In this document: positions 20,946 through 29,350 of the stretch, in pieces
Position numbering within the stretch: the first letter of the stretch is position 1
How the letters are laid out: each line of letters starts with the position of its first letter
Source of the DNA: a candidate division WOR-3 bacterium
Lineage (GTDB): Bacteria > Hydrothermota > Tepidihabitantia > Tepidihabitantales > JAOUPE01
Direction of reading: 5' to 3'
Assembly (NCBI GenBank): GCA_039801565.1
Contig: JBDRUX010000003.1
Coordinates: 1 to 56,357, forward strand
DNA: 56,357 nt
Notes under the pieces: generated by a model
Told to the model about the DNA's origin: nothing
Database searches by the model: none
Seen by the model: only the letters and a program-made list of their open reading frames with translations
Made by a program: the position numbers and the translations under genes

Positions 20946-21701
20946 ATGATTAAAAAACTATTCGTCCCCATTGCTACGTTTTCAGTTGCCTTTGAGACCA
21001 ACGGCAAAGGGTTCTTAGGATTTATTGTCGAACTGCCTGGTGCCTTTATCCGAGGTAAAACCGAAGCCGAGGCACTGGCTAAAGTAAATCAAGAAGTGAA
21101 ATCATATCTCAAATGGTTGAAAATCAAACAAGACTTTACTTATAAGACAAATGTTGTCCAATACCATCAAAGTCAATTGATGGTCGAAGATGCCGACAGT
21201 GCGATTTTACTCAATGCCGATAAGGGAGAAATGGAAGAAGAAGAATTTGTTAATCTTAGCGAGCTGGTTCGCTATTCGGGCAAGACAATCTTAAAGATTT
21301 ACCACAGTGCTGAATTAAAGGATTGGGTGGATGGGGCAAGGATTAGAAAGACCTTTTACGGCGATAACTTCACGACCATTGAGGGAATATTCGGTCATAT
21401 TAAACGGTGCCAATACTATTATCTCTCCCGAACCAAAATCCCATTTGAACCAAAAGAAGAGGACTTTATGAAAATTCGGGAATTTTGTTTAACTAAAATC
21501 AAAGAACTTTATCAAAAAGAGAATAACTTCTTAATCTTTAATACCGATAATGAATTATGGACGCTTAAGAAAATATTGCGTCGGTTCATCTGGCATGATA
21601 GAATTCACGGCAAGGCGATAATTCGGATTTTAGCTAAGCAAAAGGAATTAGGGCTAATTGATAGATACGAAGACCCTTTTTATTTTACCCAACCGCAATG
21701 A
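20946..21701 (+). CDS. Hypothetical protein with a HicB/UPF0150-like N-terminus and a DinB-like C-terminus
   Basis: FIVELPGAFIRGKTEAEALAKVNQEVKSYLKW resembles the HicB-type fold. The C-terminal WHDRIHGKAI resembles the DinB His motif. Both are by-eye similarities only. Confidence 0.4.
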   Translation: MIKKLFVPIATFSVAFETNGKGFLGFIVELPGAFIRGKTEAEALAKVNQEVKSYLKWLKIKQDFTYKTNVVQYHQSQLMVEDADSAILLNADKGEMEEEEFVNLSELVRYSGKTILKIYHSAELKDWVDGARIRKTFYGDNFTTIEGIFGHIKRCQYYYLSRTKIPFEPKEEDFMKIREFCLTKIKELYQKENNFLIFNTDNELWTLKKILRRFIWHDRIHGKAIIRILAKQKELGLIDRYEDPFYFTQPQ

Positions 21702-21753: not shown

Positions 21754-22326
21754 ATGGATATCTTTCAAATCTTTAAATCTAAATTGCGTCGGCACTTATT
21801 AAGTTTATATTTTACTAATCCGGCAAAAAAATTTTACCTGCGGGAATTAGAAAGGATACTCGATTTCCCGGTCGGTAATATCCGTCGGGAATTGATAAGA
21901 CTTGAAAAGACCGGACTTTTTCTAACCGAGCATAAAGGTAATCTTGTCTATTATTACTTAAACCAGACTTATCCGCTTTTTGCTGAATTAAAAGGGATAA
22001 TAGCAAAGACAATTGGTGTGCCAATAATTATTGCCTCGATGTTAAAAAAGATAAAAGGGATAAAACAGGCATTCATCTATGGCTCTTTTGCTAAAAATGA
22101 GCAGAAGCCAAAAAGCGACATTGACATCTTCATTATCGGTGAAATAGATGAAGCGGAATTGGTTAAGCGATGTTGTAAACTGGAAAAAGAACTACAAAGG
22201 GAGATTAATTATACGCTTTATAGCCCAACTGACTTTACCCGCAAGAAAAAAAAGAAAGACCCTTTTCTGCTTGAGGTCTTAAGTCAACCCAAGATATTCT
22301 TAATCGGCTCGGAAGATGAACTATAA
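21754..22326 (+). CDS. wHTH plus minimal nucleotidyltransferase (MNT-type antitoxin-like) protein
   Basis: The N-terminus is ArsR-like wHTH (FYLRELERILDFPVGNIRRELIRLEKTGL). The NTase motif is GSFAKNEQKPKSDIDIFIIG. Confidence 0.7.
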   Translation: MDIFQIFKSKLRRHLLSLYFTNPAKKFYLRELERILDFPVGNIRRELIRLEKTGLFLTEHKGNLVYYYLNQTYPLFAELKGIIAKTIGVPIIIASMLKKIKGIKQAFIYGSFAKNEQKPKSDIDIFIIGEIDEAELVKRCCKLEKELQREINYTLYSPTDFTRKKKKKDPFLLEVLSQPKIFLIGSEDEL

Positions 22327-22780
22327 AAATCTCATAATCAATTTGCTAAATAAAGGGTTAATCAAAAAGCAGACACTTGACTTCAAACAGATAAAAAACC
22401 TTTTACTGCGGGCACGAAAGGATTTGGTTGTGGCAAAAAGGAATTTGGCAATTGATGAGGAAGTTACTTATAACTATGCCTATTTAGCAATGTTGCGTTG
22501 TGGGCGTGCTTTGATGCTTTTACACGGCTATCGTCCCGATGGTGGCGGGCAACATAAAACCGTAATTGATTTTGTCGCGGTAGTGCTTGGACCAACTTTC
22601 GCTGACCTTGTCAATAAATTCGATATAATGCGGCGAAAAAGAAATCAGTTCACTTATGAACCATTTTTGCCGATATCCCGAACCGAGGCGGAAAATGCTT
22701 TAAAATCAGCTGAGGAATTTGTCACAAAATTAATTGAATTGGTCAAAAAAGAAAATCCTCAATTGGAATTGGATTTATAA
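22316..22780 (+). CDS. HEPN domain protein (partner of MNT)
   Basis: It overlaps the MNT gene by 11 nt. It is a helical protein with a HEPN-like MRRKRNQFTYE segment; the canonical Rx4-6H histidine is not evident. Confidence 0.6.
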   Translation: MNYKNLIINLLNKGLIKKQTLDFKQIKNLLLRARKDLVVAKRNLAIDEEVTYNYAYLAMLRCGRALMLLHGYRPDGGGQHKTVIDFVAVVLGPTFADLVNKFDIMRRKRNQFTYEPFLPISRTEAENALKSAEEFVTKLIELVKKENPQLELDL

Positions 22781-22894: not shown

Positions 22895-22922
22895 TTGACA
22901 GTTAAGAAATTGGGATTAAAAT
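22895..22922 (+). promoter_or_regulatory. Promoter TTGACA-16 nt-TAAAAT of the ParE-family TA operon (copy 1 of a duplicated 32-nt block)
   Basis: TTGACA at 22895-22900, TAAAAT at 22917-22922, GGAGGA RBS, then ATG 22941. Confidence 0.6.
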
Positions 22923-22940: not shown

Positions 22941-23129
22941 ATGACGATTGCTAAAAAACAAATCCTGGAACTTTTAAAAGACTTACCGGCAAAGGTAGAT
23001 ATTGATGAGATAATATATCGTCTTTACCTTCGGCAGAAACTCGAAATTGCAGAAAAGGACATTCGGAGGGGCAGATTGGTTTCGCACAAAAAAGTGGTTA
23101 AGGAAACCGCCAAATGGTTGAAAAAATAG
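22941..23129 (+). CDS. Putative antitoxin (small addiction-module component)
   Basis: 62 aa. It overlaps the ParE-like toxin gene by 16 nt. The assignment rests on position and size. Confidence 0.55.
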   Translation: MTIAKKQILELLKDLPAKVDIDEIIYRLYLRQKLEIAEKDIRRGRLVSHKKVVKETAKWLKK

Positions 23130-23419
23130 AATGGGCCGGTCGTGCCTTCAAAGACTTACAAGATATTTATGAGTTTATCGCAAAAGACTCCAAGCGGTTC
23201 GCTCAGATACAGATTGAAAATATCCAAAAAGCGGTATCAAACTTTGCCAATTTTCCACTTATGGGACGAAAACTTCCGGAATTTCCATATTTACCGTATC
23301 GAGAAATTTTAGTTGGTAATTATCGGGTCTTATTATATAGATATGACGAAAGACAAAAACGGATATATGTAATGGCTATTGTTCATGGCCGAAGGTTACT
23401 TAAAGAAACGGAACACTAA
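23114..23419 (+). CDS. RelE/ParE-family toxin
   Basis: 101 aa. IEWAGRAFKDLQDIYEFIAKDS...GNYRVLLYRYDERQKRIYVMAIVHGRR matches the ParE/RelE layout. Confidence 0.75.
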   Translation: MVEKIEWAGRAFKDLQDIYEFIAKDSKRFAQIQIENIQKAVSNFANFPLMGRKLPEFPYLPYREILVGNYRVLLYRYDERQKRIYVMAIVHGRRLLKETEH

Positions 23420-23488: not shown

Positions 23489-23516
23489 TTGACAATTAAG
23501 AAATTGGGGTTAAAAT
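23489..23516 (+). promoter_or_regulatory. Second copy of the TTGACA-16 nt-TAAAAT promoter block, downstream of the TA pair
   Basis: gatattgacaattaagaaattggggttaaaat (23485-23516) compared with gatattgacagttaagaaattgggattaaaat (22891-22922). Confidence 0.5.
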
Positions 23517-23638
23517 CCAATTGTTAAGCGATAACTAAAAATAACTATGGCAAAAGAAGCGACTTATACTACAAAAGAAACAATAAAAATTCAAATAACT
23601 AATTTATTGATAAATATCGTTTATTTAATGAATTTTAC

Positions 23639-23666
23639 TTGACATTATTTAAAAAATTGCTATAAT
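23639..23666 (+). promoter_or_regulatory. Promoter P1: TTGACA-16 nt-(TGc)TATAAT
   Basis: Consensus -35 at 23639-23644. Extended -10 tgcTATAAT at 23658-23666. Lies in a stretch almost free of G/C. Confidence 0.6.
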
Positions 23667-23725
23667 TATTTAAAATATTTTTAAGATAGGATTTATTAAT
23701 AAAAATATTACTATTTAATTTATGC

Positions 23726-23753
23726 TTGACATTTTATAAATTTTTACTATAAT
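23726..23753 (+). promoter_or_regulatory. Promoter P2: TTGACA-16 nt-TATAAT, proximal promoter of the GHKL cassette
   Basis: Consensus -35 at 23726-23731 and consensus -10 at 23748-23753. AAGGAGG RBS at 23777-23783. ATG at 23788. Confidence 0.65.
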
Positions 23754-23787
23754 TAATATAAATGAATTTTTATAACAAGGAGGCATT

Positions 23788-24012
23788 ATGGTTGAAAAAG
23801 AAACTCCGGAGGAAAGGTTTAAGCGTTTAGCTACGCGTCGGACTAATGCAGTATTACAAAAGTTACGAATCTTGGGCAACTGCGCCAACCGGTATGTTTA
23901 CGAATACACCGAAGAAGATGTTAAAAAAATCTTTTCGGCGATAGAGTCAGCGCTTACCGAAATCAAGAAAAAATTCTATGTGCCAAAAGAAAATAAGTTT
24001 AAACTTGAATAA
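23788..24012 (+). CDS. Small basic helical protein; first gene of the GHKL cassette; function unknown
   Basis: Strong RBS. 74 aa with a K/R-rich N-terminus (ERFKRLATRRTNAVLQKLRILGN). No family recognised. Confidence 0.7.
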   Translation: MVEKETPEERFKRLATRRTNAVLQKLRILGNCANRYVYEYTEEDVKKIFSAIESALTEIKKKFYVPKENKFKLE

Positions 24013-24026
24013 AGAAGGAAGTAAGA

Positions 24027-25577
24027 ATGGCAGAAATTGATAAAGGCAAAACAACCCTGAGGGATGTGAGAAAATGGATAGAGCAAGCAATTATCCCTCA
24101 ATATCATTTTGAACCTCAAAAAGCTTCTTTAATCGAAATTATTGCAAATTCCCTTGACGCTCAAGCTTCGGTTATTGAGATAACAGTTAACGACGGAATT
24201 TTAGAGGTTACCGATAATGGGATAGGAATGGATAGAACCACATTTAAAGATTACCACGACCTCTTTTCTAAAAAGACACGGGGAAAAGGGATTGGTTTCA
24301 TAGGGCAAGGCGCAAAAATTGCTCTAACTTTTTGCTCGAAAGTAATAACTCAAACAGTATCAAAAAATTACAGGGGATATTCGGAATGGCAATTTAAGGG
24401 TGAAGAAGCACCCTATGAGATACAACACGGAAATATTTTGGATTTAAATCATCAAGGAACGAAAGTGACACTTCATCTACACCGGGATAGCATAGACTTT
24501 TATACTGATAAGTGGATTGAAGAAATTTTGGAAGAGCATTATACTCCTCTATTGGATAGCGAATTATTAAAAGTGTATTCTGGCGAAATTCCGATATTGG
24601 AAAAGGGGGCTTATAAACAGTTTCGCAGGATATACCCTGAAAAGGTAAAGTTTATTATAAACGGACAAGAGATAATCAAAACCTCTTTACAAGAGAGGTT
24701 AAGTAATAAGAAAGAAATATTAATTACTAAATACAAAAAACCTTTAGCTTGGGGATTTTTTGGATTATTAAAGGAAACCGAAGCGAAAGAGTCGCTGCGC
24801 GGCGTTGCTTTATGCACATACGGTAAGGTAATAGAAAGAAGTTTGTTCAAAAAAGACCCGCATGACAAAGAAAAAATAGTTGGGTGGATAGAAGCTCCGT
24901 ATTTAGTAGAAGCCGTCACAACGGACAAATGCAGGTTTCAGGGCGGAAACCCTAAATGGGAATCTTTTTTTAGGAAAACCCAGAGGGAATTCTCTCAATG
25001 GTTGGAAGAAATAGGTGCCCTTGAGCCCCCAAAAAAGCTTGAACCGGCATTCTCAGAGCTAGAAAAAGAGATTAACTCCATTCTTAAGAATTTACCCGAG
25101 CTTTCCTTTTTTGGTTCGCAAATGAATAGAGATGTATCGATTCCTAATGAAAACGGCGAACCGAAAGAACTAACTGAAGGAACTCAAAAGGTTTCAGGCA
25201 CCAAAGGGGGTGAGACTACAGGCGGAGGAGTTCCAGTTTCTCCTGGTTTTGATGAAGGTAAAGCACCTGACACCAGCCCCGGTTTTGGTCCTAAAGCAGA
25301 AGTAAAACCAAGAACTTTGCGCGGTGGAATTAGAATATCTTTTGAAGAAAAATCCGATACGGAAGAGGAGGCTCACTTTGACGGTGAAGTTGTGACTATA
25401 AATAGATCTCATCCTGCTTATAAAAGAGCCGATAAAGATAGACTTCTCAATTATCATATTTTAAAGTCTGCTGTCTTGAGTCTTATAAAGTTCAATTTGG
25501 ATAAAGCCTCTGAATCCTCTTGGCAAAAAGTTTTTGAACTTCAGCAAAAGTTTTTTAGATTATGGGGAGAGCGATGA
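24027..25577 (+). CDS. GHKL-superfamily (Bergerat fold, HATPase_c_3 / MORC-HSP90-like) ATPase
   Basis: N-box EIIANSLDA, G1 box TDNGIGMD and G2-like KGIGFIGQGAKIAL are present. A G/P/T-rich linker precedes the conserved tail VVTINRSHPAYKRA. No histidine-kinase dimerisation/H-box or receiver domain is present. Confidence 0.8.
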   Translation: MAEIDKGKTTLRDVRKWIEQAIIPQYHFEPQKASLIEIIANSLDAQASVIEITVNDGILEVTDNGIGMDRTTFKDYHDLFSKKTRGKGIGFIGQGAKIALTFCSKVITQTVSKNYRGYSEWQFKGEEAPYEIQHGNILDLNHQGTKVTLHLHRDSIDFYTDKWIEEILEEHYTPLLDSELLKVYSGEIPILEKGAYKQFRRIYPEKVKFIINGQEIIKTSLQERLSNKKEILITKYKKPLAWGFFGLLKETEAKESLRGVALCTYGKVIERSLFKKDPHDKEKIVGWIEAPYLVEAVTTDKCRFQGGNPKWESFFRKTQREFSQWLEEIGALEPPKKLEPAFSELEKEINSILKNLPELSFFGSQMNRDVSIPNENGEPKELTEGTQKVSGTKGGETTGGGVPVSPGFDEGKAPDTSPGFGPKAEVKPRTLRGGIRISFEEKSDTEEEAHFDGEVVTINRSHPAYKRADKDRLLNYHILKSAVLSLIKFNLDKASESSWQKVFELQQKFFRLWGER

Positions 25578-26062
25578 ATAATCTAAAAGTAGCTATTAAA
25601 ATTCAAAAAGTCAAAAAACCTGATGGCACTGAAACATTAAAGGCAACTGTCCCGATGGGAATAATGTTCGAAAAAACTTTCAATGGTAAATTGCTTGAAG
25701 AAGAACTCGGTAAATTTGAGAAAAAATATTTTTCTCTTGTTGAATCTCTCAAGGATATTTTGAAATCGATACGTTCCAAGACCCAAAAGAATAAAGTACT
25801 ACTATATTGGAATTTTGGAGACAAAATTTATAATTTCGAAAGAGCCACTGATAAGGAGACTTTTTTCTTAGAAAATGTTACTAAACATTTAGTTAGGGAT
25901 GTCGGCGTCTCAGATAAAATGATTAGGCGTTGCAGACGATTCAGAACCTTATATCCTAACGCCGTTGATATCGACAAAGAGAGGTCTTTCGATAGCTATG
26001 TTAGGACATTTGAAGGAGGCTATATTTCTCAAAAAAGAATAAAAAAAGAAATGAGGGAGTAA
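25574..26062 (+). CDS. DUF1016-N-terminal-like protein lacking a nuclease domain; third gene of the GHKL cassette
   Basis: ATG 25574 forms an ATGA overlap with the GHKL stop. KVLLYWNFGDKIY...VTKHLVRDVGVSDKMIRRCRRFRTLYP resembles the helical N-domain of YhcG/DUF1016 proteins. No PD-(D/E)xK segment follows. Confidence 0.55.
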   Translation: MNNLKVAIKIQKVKKPDGTETLKATVPMGIMFEKTFNGKLLEEELGKFEKKYFSLVESLKDILKSIRSKTQKNKVLLYWNFGDKIYNFERATDKETFFLENVTKHLVRDVGVSDKMIRRCRRFRTLYPNAVDIDKERSFDSYVRTFEGGYISQKRIKKEMRE

Positions 26063-26202: not shown

Positions 26203-26547
26203 ATGGTTACAAAAATGGAAACCAACTATCAAAAAGTCAAAATAAAGATAAGAAAACCAGGCATAACCTACGAAACCCTATGGGTAAGATGTCTTTCGGA
26301 GAACACGGGAGTGATAAACAATATACCGATTTTCACTAAGAGATTTAAATATGGTGATGTTGTTGAATTCGACCCTGAAACCTTCGAAGTCAAAAAATTA
26401 ATATCCGATGGTGGCCATGCCACAACTAAGTTCGTTAAATACGAGGGCGACCCAGAACCTATAATCGAAAAGTTAAAGAATGATGGTTATATTGTCGAAC
26501 TCTGGCAAGGGCTTTTAGCTGTAACAAAAGCAAAAAGTTATCTATAA
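26203..26547 (+). CDS. DUF4265-like protein (immunity-protein-like)
   Basis: ETLWVRCLSENTGVINNIPIFTKRFKYGDVVEF matches the DUF4265 pattern (E.LW...Y.L.N.PF....GD.V) by eye. Confidence 0.5.
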   Translation: MVTKMETNYQKVKIKIRKPGITYETLWVRCLSENTGVINNIPIFTKRFKYGDVVEFDPETFEVKKLISDGGHATTKFVKYEGDPEPIIEKLKNDGYIVELWQGLLAVTKAKSYL

Positions 26548-26559
26548 TTGGAGGTAACC

Positions 26560-26862
26560 TTGAAAGTTGAAGAGCTGTTAAGAAAAGTAAATATAAATCC
26601 TTCTGAGCCAGTACTTCTGATAACGGCGGAAGAGGCGTTGGAAAATCTTTTAGAAGCAATCGAAGAATATTGCCCGAACTTGCAAATTGAGAAAATGACT
26701 AAAGAAGACCTAAAGACCCTACTTGATAGTTATGCCGGTTCGGTGATTAATTACCATCCCGAAAAATATCATCAAGAAAGGGGCGCACTGCTTGAATGTT
26801 TTAAGATGCTAAAACGCTATGGTCTAACCGATGACGATTACGATTCGATAGATTTCTGTTAA
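26560..26862 (+). CDS. Small acidic hypothetical protein
   Basis: The track start is TTG 26548. TTG 26560 has a GGAGG 5 nt upstream and is preferred. The 3' end (YDSIDFC*) is duplicated as a relic at 27877-27900. Confidence 0.5.
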   Translation: MKVEELLRKVNINPSEPVLLITAEEALENLLEAIEEYCPNLQIEKMTKEDLKTLLDSYAGSVINYHPEKYHQERGALLECFKMLKRYGLTDDDYDSIDFC

Positions 26863-26992: not shown

Positions 26993-27021
26993 TTGACATT
27001 TTAAAAAACAAGAGTTATAAT
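26993..27021 (+). promoter_or_regulatory. Promoter TTGACA-17 nt-TATAAT, 6 nt upstream of the GTG start of the DUF4258 gene
   Basis: Consensus hexamers at 26993-26998 and 27016-27021. There is no room for an SD before GTG 27028. Confidence 0.55.
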
Positions 27022-27027
27022 TAATCA

Positions 27028-27309
27028 GTGGAGATTAAAATTGAACCGCATACTTTGGAGCGAGCCGAAGAACGAGGCACTAATGAAGAAGAAATTAGGA
27101 CCGTTATTGAAACTGGATTCACGATACCAGCAAAACATGGACGGACTGGGAAAGCCAAAATTTTTGATTTTAAACAGACCCGCCACGGTAAATACTATGA
27201 GCAAAAAAGAGTAGAGGTATTTTATCTGATGGAAAAGGATATTATTATAACTGTAACGGTTTATGTCTTTTATGGAAAATGGGAGGAATATAATGCAAAT
27301 CCTATATGA
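27028..27309 (+). CDS. DUF4258-domain protein (toxin-like)
   Basis: IEPHTLERAEERGTNEEEIRTVIETG matches the DUF4258 N-terminal pattern. It is paired with a DUF2283 gene. Confidence 0.65.
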   Translation: MEIKIEPHTLERAEERGTNEEEIRTVIETGFTIPAKHGRTGKAKIFDFKQTRHGKYYEQKRVEVFYLMEKDIIITVTVYVFYGKWEEYNANPI

Positions 27310-27508
27310 TGTGAAAACCGACTTGCTTTATATCCGATTGGATGAACGAAAACAATCGGTCATCAACAAACGCATTACCGAAGATATTGTCCTTGACATT
27401 GGTGAGAATGAAAGGATTGTCGGCATTGAAATATTGGATGCCTCGAAACATTTGAATTTAGAGACAGTCTTGCCGGTTAAATATCGGCATTTACCGGAAA
27501 TGGTCTAA
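27293..27508 (+). CDS. DUF2283-domain protein (antitoxin-like)
   Basis: ATG 27293 is preceded by GGGAGGA and is preferred over track start 27263. YDVKTDLLYIRL...IVLDIGENERIVGIEILDASKHL is a typical DUF2283 sequence. Confidence 0.65.
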   Translation: MQILYDVKTDLLYIRLDERKQSVINKRITEDIVLDIGENERIVGIEILDASKHLNLETVLPVKYRHLPEMV

Positions 27509-28467: not shown

Positions 28468-28732
28468 TATGCCAAGAAATATTATTACCAAAGCGGTTTT
28501 GACCGTTTGGCTTCAAAACGCTGTAATCCTACTCGGCAAGTTTTTCTCTTAATCTTTTAAACATCGCTAAATAGCTCGGAAAGTTTTTTATAAACCTCTT
28601 TGGCTTGTTCTTCATAAATGGGCGGTTAAATTGCGGTCATCAATCATAGCCAACTATTTTTATCATAGTCAATCAATTTTAATTGAAAAGCGGTTTTGAA
28701 ACAATCTCAAGGCGAATAACATTCGATTGGAC

Positions 28733-28970
28733 ACCTGCCTGCGAAGTCACTCCCCAAGTAGCCTACGGGATTGCCCCCGAGATAACTCCCCAGCTAACCC
28801 CCTAACTGACTCCCTAAGCCGCCTCCAAGGTCGCCTTCCAACCCACTCCCTAACCTGCCCCCTAACCGGCTCCCGAAGCAACCTACCAAGCAACTTAGGA
28901 GGCAACCTACGGGGCAACTTAGGGAGTAGCCTACGGGGTCACCCCCTATACGATACCCCCTCCCAAAGCA
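28733..28970 (+). repeat. GC-rich degenerate 12-bp tandem array (about 19-20 units)
   Basis: It reads in 12-nt phase: agcaacctacca agcaacttagga ggcaacctacgg ggcaacttaggg agtagcctacgg ggtcacccccta. It ends in ...ataccccctccc. Confidence 0.85.
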
Positions 28971-29322
28971 AAAATTGGCATAAGTGACGGACGACCAAGA
29001 AGATAGACGAAAAAATCGGTCAATTTTAGGTTGAAATATATTTCAATTTTTTCTGGCACAAAACACTTTCTGGGACCAAAGACAAATTGTGGACCTTTCT
29101 TTTAAAAAACCCTGAAATTTCATTTATTCACTTTTTTCGTAGAATCAAGCACTTACAAGTTAAACTAATTCCTTTCCGTTCAAGCAAAATCTTTGAAAAC
29201 GATCTTCTCCTAACCTATTGAAATTACATAACTAATCGGTTGGGAGTTAATTCCACCATATTTACTCACTGAATTGCATTGGCTGAAGAAATTCGGTATT
29301 TTAAAAATTTCTAATCAATCGC

Positions 29323-29350
29323 TTGACATTTCGTTTTAAATTAGTATGAT
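29323..29350 (+). promoter_or_regulatory. Promoter TTGACA-16 nt-TATGAT whose -10 contains the annotated ATG of the GT2 gene
   Basis: TTGACA at 29323-29328. TATGAT at 29345-29350. ATG at 29346-29348. TTG at 29358 lies 7 nt after the -10. Confidence 0.4.

Follow-up and report, generated by a model that had tools for sequence, protein, structure and literature searches.

Contig JBDRUX010000003.1 of a candidate division WOR-3 bacterium (assembly GCA_039801565.1) carries three closely packed genes: gene 1, encoding a small basic protein, gene 2, encoding an ATPase of the GHKL (Bergerat-fold) superfamily, and gene 3, encoding a small protein with weak similarity to DUF1016_N. The entire 56,357-nt stretch that was analyzed is referred to below as the window. 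A first-pass annotation of this DNA had described the three genes as a single triad and a candidate conflict system. The three open reading frames (ORFs), all on the plus strand, the 14-nt gap between genes 1 and 2, and the ATGA overlap at the junction of genes 2 and 3 are as that annotation placed them. The idea of one conserved triad, in contrast, did not hold: gene 1 was found upstream of gene 2-family ATPases in none of the 53 metagenome loci with room for it and in none of the genome loci, and it proved to be a promiscuous leader in its own right, heading many different GHKL cassettes of uncultivated microbes.

The features of the locus are listed in Table 1. The 14-nt gap contains a Shine-Dalgarno-like sequence, AAGGAAG (ribosome-binding site), and the methionine at 25574, where ATGA overlaps the stop codon of gene 2, is the start of gene 3 that aligns with its homologues. 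Upstream of gene 1, the tandem promoters P1 and P2 each match the sigma-70 consensus at 12 of 12 positions and are spaced by 87 nt, and a 44-nt direct repeat (23633-23676 and 23720-23763) encloses the two of them. The leader is as poor in G and C as had been noted (18% G+C over the 300 nt upstream of gene 1), and a comparison of this AT-rich sequence with Rfam matched no known RNA family.

A two-gene core of GHKL ATPase and small partner

The association between genes 2 and 3 is strict. A gene 3 homologue is located directly 3' of the ATPase in all 20 genome loci that have sequence there (23 loci in all) and in 69 of the 80 metagenome loci, or 65 of the 66 with room, that is, with at least 520 nt after the ATPase. 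Genes 2 and 3 are an obligate, fixed two-gene module that carries no name. The expected synteny of all three families in other genomes was, accordingly, borne out for genes 2 and 3 and failed for gene 1.

The N-box (EIIANSLDA), the DxGxG or G1 box (TDNGIGMD) and the G2 box (GFIGQGAKIAL) that had been read from the translation are all present in gene 2, and, together with the fold, place it in the GHKL superfamily. The Pfam model HATPase_c_3 matches with 38.8 bits (cutoff 25), and E37, N41, D44, D63, G65, G67, G90, G93, Q94 and G95 are invariant across 28 homologues, so that, judging from these motif residues and the modeled fold, the product of gene 2 is predicted to be an active ATPase. In the AlphaFold2 model (predicted local distance difference test (pLDDT) score 79), the GHKL domain leads into a middle domain rich in beta structure, and a disordered linker then connects to a small C-terminal domain. 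The G/P/T-rich linker and conserved tail recognized in the first-pass annotation correspond, respectively, to the segment modeled as disordered, which differs in length and sequence among homologues, and to a C-terminal domain with invariant columns. A Foldseek search with this model aligned about 400 residues to the N and middle domains of TRAP1/Hsp90 and to the MORC3 ATPase, with E-values of ~1e-13 to 1e-12 and a probability of 1.00, but with a TM-score of only ~0.4; by sequence, the match to an Hsp90-type protein in the PDB is marginal (E=0.0025). Neither a nuclease nor a kinase part was found in gene 2 in the Pfam, NCBIfam and Foldseek comparisons. Among more than 130 homologues, the most informative name is "ATP-binding protein".

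The C-terminal domain of gene 2 is probably a structural, dimerization module. Profile alignments to two other clusters of GHKL proteins described below (C3 and C4) extend to query column ~498, inside this domain, and a segment related to the FDGE..TIN.SHPAY motif was seen by eye in several further clusters, with a variable histidine. We also considered a nuclease role for this domain and rejected it: by eye, the histidine of 'IN..HP.Y' is lost in clusters C8 and C9, and the fact that this residue is not kept everywhere argues against catalysis.

Gene 3 is best described as a small, stand-alone helical protein that lacks a nuclease and weakly resembles DUF1016_N, in agreement with the first-pass annotation, with the qualification that the Pfam match, at 17.2 bits (E=0.0056), does not reach the cutoff of 32.8. 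The same signal appears in 13 of 33 members of the family, always under the cutoff (best E=2e-4), and gene 3 weakly matches the PADLOC PDC-S02 profiles over their N-terminal third only (best 3.8e-6). The AlphaFold2 model (pLDDT 85.5) starts with a beta-hairpin at the N-terminus and continues through a long helix into a helical bundle; Foldseek comparison of this model with the PDB and BFVD yielded no significant fold match, and a sequence search of the PDB no match at E<=0.001 (best 0.33). No nuclease domain was found in gene 3, which stops at 162 aa, and its relatives are similarly compact: about 80 close ones measure 145-177 aa, with none fused to another domain (two 96-aa entries and one of 131 aa are the exceptions in length and are probably truncated), and a profile search retrieved 125 clusters consisting mainly of stand-alone proteins of 140-200 aa. 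Two distant relatives (P0429 and P0432) appear by eye to have an SNase-like C-terminus. Comparison of gene 3 by hhalign with the partner families C2, C6, C7 and C11 revealed no significant link, despite similarity visible by eye.

The gene 1 leader family and its cargo

A tblastn search for gene 1 near ATPase homologues returned chance matches only, and the closest relatives of the ATPase (65-67% identity) carry other upstream genes, such as a zinc-ribbon ORF and a MerR-type helix-turn-helix (HTH) in L024 and an unrelated 77-aa ORF in L026. Elsewhere, gene 1 occurs together with a gene 2-family ATPase at only two loci, L116, where an extra 82-aa gene sits between them, and L048, where the ATPase behind gene 1 is 42% identical. 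By itself, gene 1 defines a family of at least 225 proteins, with 56-79% identity among the 120 listed, that was found in more than 265 genomes, mostly of Patescibacteria/Candidate Phyla Radiation (CPR), Saccharibacteria, Dehalococcoidales, Nitrospinota and Nitrospirota, along with several archaea. No Pfam, NCBIfam or PADLOC model matches the family, Pfam revealed neither a STAS domain nor any other in gene 1, and a sequence search of the PDB with gene 1 gave no match at E<=0.001 (best 0.027).

Among 71 loci with a chain of ORFs downstream, gene 1 and its successor are separated by a median of 6 nt, and by no more than 30 nt at 63 of them. The cassettes that follow vary independently of the leader: gene 1 does not co-vary with cassette type, mean identity being 0.637 within types and 0.608 between them. 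Moreover, identical or nearly identical copies precede different cassettes, at 100% in L061 and L062 and at 99% in L087 and L099, and gene 1 therefore behaves as a cassette-independent regulator or cofactor. As a separate observation, in L061 (Sungiibacteriota) and L062 (labeled Gammaproteobacteria), gene 1 is identical over the aligned region and the upstream regions are nearly identical as well, which points to a very recent transfer or a binning error.

Promoter-like sequences recur ahead of the leader. A match to at least 11 of the 12 consensus positions is present at 15 of 73 other gene 1 loci, in 14 of these 36-96 nt upstream. Relative to both shuffled and distal sequence, short motifs were overrepresented in the 130 nt nearest to gene 1 on its upstream side: TTGACAT occurred at 25 of 74 loci (shuffle mean 1.0), TATAAATA/TATTTATA at 19 of 74 (6.9), and motifs of the AAGGGT/ATCCTT types at 30 of 74 (9.6). 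These motifs fit, without proving, a unit of regulator plus promoter that moves between cassettes.

The genes directly after gene 1 are highly diverse. A regular expression for the GHKL motifs proved too rigid, catching just 24 of 71 loci; profile-profile comparison, used in its place, joined the large proteins into one GHKL superfamily. The family of gene 2 is linked by hhalign to clusters C3 (probability 99.1%), C4 (98.7%) and C8 (98.8%), and other links connect C1-C3 (97.9%), C3-C5 (98.2%), C3-C9 (93.4%), C4-C10 (97.2%) and C5-C8 (99.7%); several of the clusters are backed by Pfam HATPase_c_3 matches. Cluster C10 is the PADLOC candidate PDC-M33A (E=2e-94), with PDC-M33B and PDC-M33C after it in the same locus. 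Cargo outside this superfamily is rare and includes a TIR_2 protein, a DUF4365-TPR protein, and a superfamily 2 (SF2) helicase followed by a protein that reads by eye as ParB-like.

Several individual loci of the leader family deserve mention. One GHKL ATPase behind gene 1 (L040:5864-8689) ends in Sigma70_r4 and Bac_DnaA_C (E=1.9e-23), and another (L080:5224-7269) appears by eye to carry the same DNA-binding tail; fusion of a GHKL ATPase to a DnaA-box-binding domain is unusual. The only viral match to gene 1 lies on an IMG/VR contig (L119:1438-1863), in a 141-aa protein that joins a zinc-ribbon-like N-terminus to a C-terminal half resembling gene 1, with no GHKL gene after it; this protein could be a phage mimic or regulator.

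Genomic context and interpretation

In the window, the cassette lies among genes that match toxin-antitoxin (TA) families, and genes 1-3 themselves match no TA family in Pfam, PADLOC or NCBIfam. The TA-type neighborhood described in the first-pass annotation was thus largely recovered: Pfam supports MNT/HEPN, ParE, DUF4265 and DUF2283, whereas the ORF at 27028-27309 has no Pfam match at E<=1e-4, which leaves its DUF4258 assignment unconfirmed.

Table 1. Features of the cassette and its immediate surroundings (window coordinates)
Feature	Coordinates	Strand	Description
MNT	21754-22326	+	Pfam NTP_transf_2; upstream TA-type neighbor
HEPN	22316-22780	+	Pfam; upstream TA-type neighbor
62-aa ORF	22941-23129	+	upstream, before ParE
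ParE	23114-23419	+	Pfam ParE_toxin; upstream TA-type neighbor
Duplicated promoter region	23633-23763	+	P1 23639-23666, P2 23726-23753, each TTGACA-16-TATAAT
Gene 1	23788-24012	+	74-aa basic protein; leader family ahead of diverse GHKL ATPase cassettes
Gene 2	24027-25577	+	516 aa, GHKL ATPase
Gene 2, GHKL (Bergerat) ATP-binding domain	24027-24551, residues 1-175	+	HATPase_c_3; AlphaFold2 pLDDT mostly >90
Gene 2, middle (transducer-like) domain	24552-25106, residues 176-360	+	beta-rich; invariant motif GWIEAP...TTDK
Gene 2, G/P/T-rich linker	25113-25322, residues 363-432	+	modeled disordered, pLDDT <50
Gene 2, C-terminal beta/alpha domain	25332-25577, residues 436-516	+	small, conserved; motif FDGE..TIN.SHPAY...NYH
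Gene 3	25574-26062	+	162 aa; longer ORF (166 aa) opens at 25562
DUF4265 gene	26203-26547	+	Pfam; downstream
104-aa ORF	26548-26862	+	downstream
93-aa ORF	27028-27309	+	downstream
DUF2283 gene	27263-27508	+	Pfam; downstream

Beyond the immediate neighbors, the window looks chromosomal: its genes encode gingipain-like C25 peptidases that bear sorting tails for type IX secretion, along with glycosyltransferases and a trehalose-phosphate synthase/phosphatase. A third sigma-70 promoter that matches the consensus at all 12 positions is found at 26993-27021, just 5' of the 93-aa/DUF2283 gene pair (27028-27508), and further 11/12 sites at 22895, ahead of the ParE pair, and at 23489. A 251-aa ORF with no Pfam match at E<=0.1 (20946-21701) lies between a methyltransferase gene and MNT/HEPN. 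Further downstream, 880 nt without a convincing ORF (28468-29345) are far richer in G+C than the surrounding DNA and contain a degenerate C/A-rich repeat with a period of 12/24 nt, especially at 28740-28945 (TRF scores 35-79).

Homologues of gene 2 are scattered across Bacteroidota, Atribacteria, Dehalococcoidales, Anaerolineae, Omnitrophota, Acidobacteria and Coatesbacteria as well as archaea, Aenigmatarchaeota and Caldarchaeum among them. ATPase identity is about 54-57% alike across Bacteroidota, Atribacteria, Dehalococcoidales and Aenigmatarchaeota, and this similarity across phyla and domains argues for horizontal transfer. Searching 2.9 million viral contigs produced no match to gene 2 and a single match to gene 1; the cassette is not phage-borne. 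In a separate case, the nearly identical loci L001 and L002, from a Bacteroidota metagenome-assembled genome (MAG) and a Fervidobacterium MAG of the same study, point to a very recent transfer or a binning error.

At other loci, the pair is adjoined by a BsaWI-type restriction enzyme, directly 3' of gene 3 (L003), and by Eco57I/MmeI-type enzymes (L004 and L019), and resolvases are among its neighbors. A third gene combining a ribbon-helix-helix (RHH) with Mrr_N follows the pair at several genome loci (by eye) and at 9 metagenome loci; its representative in L001 (7958-8494) encodes a 178-aa protein that is SeqA_N/RHH-like at its N-terminus, carries an Mrr_N winged helix (E=1.8e-13) and lacks the Mrr nuclease, with homologues in L002, L004, L007 and L017. 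A different third gene, of 73-76 aa with the motif DYYEWLKDNF, follows at 20 metagenome loci, and the window locus has neither. In the window and at most loci, no methylase, restriction enzyme or SF2 helicase was found within a few kb. The context is, then, mixed, and leans toward a conflict role, as the first-pass annotation had suggested, on account of the TA islands, the restriction-enzyme neighbors and the patchy distribution across domains. The alternative third genes, the resolvases and the scarcity of matches in viral contigs count on the same side.

From gene order, domain composition, synteny counts, the links within the superfamily and the context, all of which were observed, we infer a mechanism to which we assign about even chances, namely, that the pair is a mobile clamp-type conflict module captured behind gene 1, which regulates or assists it. 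Under this scenario, the locus would be a composite operon in which the horizontally mobile core of genes 2 and 3 came to lie behind a leader that in other genomes precedes, along with a strong promoter of its own, many seemingly unrelated cassettes of the same GHKL superfamily. By analogy with MutL and MORC, a dimer of gene 2 may act as an ATP-driven clamp on nucleic acid, held together by the C-terminal domain, with the flexible linker allowing the dimer to enclose its substrate. Gene 3 could serve as an adaptor or recognizer of the target, and the output would be restriction or silencing of phage or plasmid DNA, alone or via host nucleases. Gene 1 would regulate the locus independently of cassette type, most likely by repressing its own duplicated promoter, or else be a common cofactor of the GHKL domain, rather than a dedicated subunit of this particular ATPase. 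That the locus is a defense system is plausible.

Several observations weigh against this interpretation. No effector such as a nuclease, NADase or pore can be recognized in genes 1-3, PADLOC has no match for gene 2, and the best hint that gene 3 binds DNA comes from a sub-domain resemblance to a phage HTH protein (E=0.32). The promoter motifs of gene 1 are AT-rich and could mirror a lineage-specific promoter style. Housekeeping genes are frequent among the neighbors of the pair. UvrA domains are found in 7 neighboring proteins, the pair holds a fixed position beside uvrA in Anaerolineae, about 10 Chloroflexi loci keep, by eye, the order uvrA, variable TA genes, the pair and a conserved 567-aa gene, and a divergent pair has RecR (E=1.7e-71) on one side and RecO (E=5e-10) on the other. 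The positions beside uvrA and between recR and recO fit a role in DNA maintenance, and they count in favor of an alternative in which the pair is an accessory of DNA repair or chromosome maintenance, a MutL-like clamp with its adaptor, that has no immune function and whose placement in a TA island is incidental. The MutL-like layout of gene 2, the missing effector domain, and the proposal of Iyer et al. 2008 (PMC2292703) that some paraMORCs were recruited for repair speak for it as well. We nevertheless consider it unlikely, given the patchy distribution with similar identity across bacterial phyla and archaea, the restriction-enzyme, Mrr_N and TA neighbors at other loci, the link of the superfamily to PDC-M33, and the TIR protein headed by the same leader. 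In addition, the uvrA loci come from one lineage, and the variable TA cargo at the same spot looks like a hotspot. Indeed, in L009-L018 (Anaerolineae/Chloroflexota), variable small TA-like genes separate uvrA from the pair between conserved flanks, which suggests an insertion hotspot downstream of uvrA.

The restriction-type neighbors admit another explanation, in which the pair is a paraMORC-like auxiliary motor of restriction-modification (R-M) that, with no activity on its own, would loop or scan DNA on behalf of a nuclease encoded at another site. The BsaWI-type and Eco57I/MmeI-type enzymes, the RHH and Mrr_N third gene and the paraMORC precedent (PMC2292703) are consistent with such a motor, which nonetheless seems to us quite unlikely, because a methylase, restriction enzyme or SF2 helicase is missing nearby in the window and at most loci, and the Mrr_N and DUF1016_N-like partners lack nuclease domains. 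It is very improbable that genes 1-3 are a dedicated three-subunit system, with gene 1 as a specific structural or antitoxin-like partner of the ATPase: the tight spacing, the shared promoters and the two loci L116 and L048 would suit it, whereas the lack of gene 1 ahead of gene 2-type ATPases at the surveyed metagenome and genome loci, the other upstream genes of the closest ATPase relatives and the service of nearly identical gene 1 copies to different cassettes all contradict it.

The clamp-type conflict module captured behind gene 1 can be set in a broader frame, which we regard as doubtful: gene 1 would be the hallmark of polymorphic immune cassettes that all rest on one GHKL ATPase superfamily and make up a large class not yet described, with the 74-aa protein as a universal switch. 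Such cassettes would be common in Patescibacteria/CPR, Chloroflexi, Nitrospinota and DPANN-type archaea, and the small protein would be an autorepressor or a sensor released upon infection. Because the ATPases lack an effector domain, restriction would, in this frame, proceed by ATP-driven clamping or compaction of foreign DNA, a prokaryotic counterpart, and possible ancestor, of MORC-type silencing.

The most interesting element of the locus, which goes partly beyond the claim of the first-pass annotation, is the leader family together with the polymorphic GHKL superfamily behind it. A highly conserved 74-aa protein about 6 nt upstream of its cargo offers a search handle that could harvest hundreds of diverse unannotated cassettes from CPR, Chloroflexi and archaea, lineages in which few defense systems are known, and it defines a testable unit of regulator plus promoter. 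Should the pair turn out to serve immunity or silencing, it would represent a system based on GHKL that lacks a recognizable killing domain, implying a clamp or compaction mode of defense that ties bacterial systems to eukaryotic MORC silencing; if the repair alternative is true, it would be a new MutL-like factor tied to uvrA and recR-recO neighborhoods in Chloroflexi.

Comparison with known systems

No named system in PADLOC v2, Pfam or NCBIfam matches genes 1-3, in line with the initial impression that the cassette was not a recognized one; the PADLOC check that had been proposed was run, and neither gene 1 nor gene 2 has a match in PADLOC-DB v2 at E<=0.1. Our literature search found no description of the pair, of gene 1, of a system combining GHKL with DUF1016, or of PDC-M33, and, for defense involving HATPase_c_3, nothing beyond Shedu and paraMORC. 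GHKL/MORC-like ATPases in prokaryotic conflict systems are known as a general kind (Iyer, Abhiman & Aravind 2008, PMC2292703).

The pair shares with paraMORCs a GHKL domain, behind which lies a middle domain that may likewise be of the transducer type, a sporadic, laterally mobile distribution with occasional restriction enzymes or methylases alongside, and the proposed role of a DNA-manipulating motor. It differs in that the window pair, like most of its relatives, has no linked SF2 helicase, methylase or nuclease, in its obligate DUF1016_N-like partner and distinct C-terminal module, and in its gene 1 leader, which we did not find in the passages of that paper that were consulted. The neighborhood typical of MORC/paraMORC is represented by sporadic neighbors only (BsaWI in L003, Eco57I-type in L004 and L019). 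PDC-M33, itself a computational candidate only, is connected in two ways: PDC-M33A belongs to the GHKL superfamily of gene 2, by chained hhalign links only (98.7% and 97.2%), and sits behind the same leader in L065 and L106. Its partners PDC-M33B and PDC-M33C are, however, unrelated to gene 3, and the window genes match none of the PDC-M33 models.

The resemblance of gene 2 to MutL lies in its layout, in which a long disordered linker separates the N-terminal GHKL domain and transducer from a C-terminal domain. The MutL model (NCBIfam/TIGR00585), in contrast, scores 23.3 bits against a cutoff of 180 and covers residues 37-71 only; there is no Pfam MutL_C match, and, with a C-terminal domain of ~80 aa, gene 2 lacks the endonuclease/dimerization domain of MutL. 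The N and middle domains of Hsp90/TRAP1 are its best structural matches, but the HtpG/Hsp90 model of NCBIfam reaches only 25.9 bits (cutoff 371), and the Hsp90 C-terminal domain is missing. Sensor histidine kinases are distinguished by the lack of a HisKA-type Pfam match in gene 2, where the GHKL domain is at the extreme N-terminus. The structural match to Hsp90 and MORC, the low MutL and HtpG scores and the missing HisKA therefore identify gene 2 as a stand-alone, distinct Hsp90/MORC-like GHKL ATPase with a MutL-like overall layout, and the earlier exclusion of a histidine kinase, a MutL orthologue and an HtpG orthologue was sound. For gene 3, the likeness to DUF1016/YhcG consists of recurrent weak matches of its helical bundle to DUF1016_N and the N-terminal part of PDC-S02, all scores being under the curated thresholds; it departs from these proteins in lacking the PD-(D/E)xK nuclease and in its additional N-terminal beta-hairpin and long helix.

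Two systems described in the literature offer parallels for the individual components. In the experimentally validated GHKL-Shedu system (VcSduA/paraMORC3), a GHKL ATPase controls the immune output (PMC12137116); as judged by Pfam and PADLOC, gene 2, unlike Shedu type I-D, has no fused DUF4263 nuclease. In CapK-CapS, CapK is described as resembling anti-sigma factor kinases (PMC13373217), whereas gene 2 is a 516-aa protein with a fold matching Hsp90/MORC, and no STAS domain was detected in gene 1 by Pfam. It is in operon architecture that CapK-CapS provides the precedent, as a small regulator module located upstream of many different immune operons (PMC13373217), the same arrangement in which gene 1 is placed ahead of its varied cassettes.

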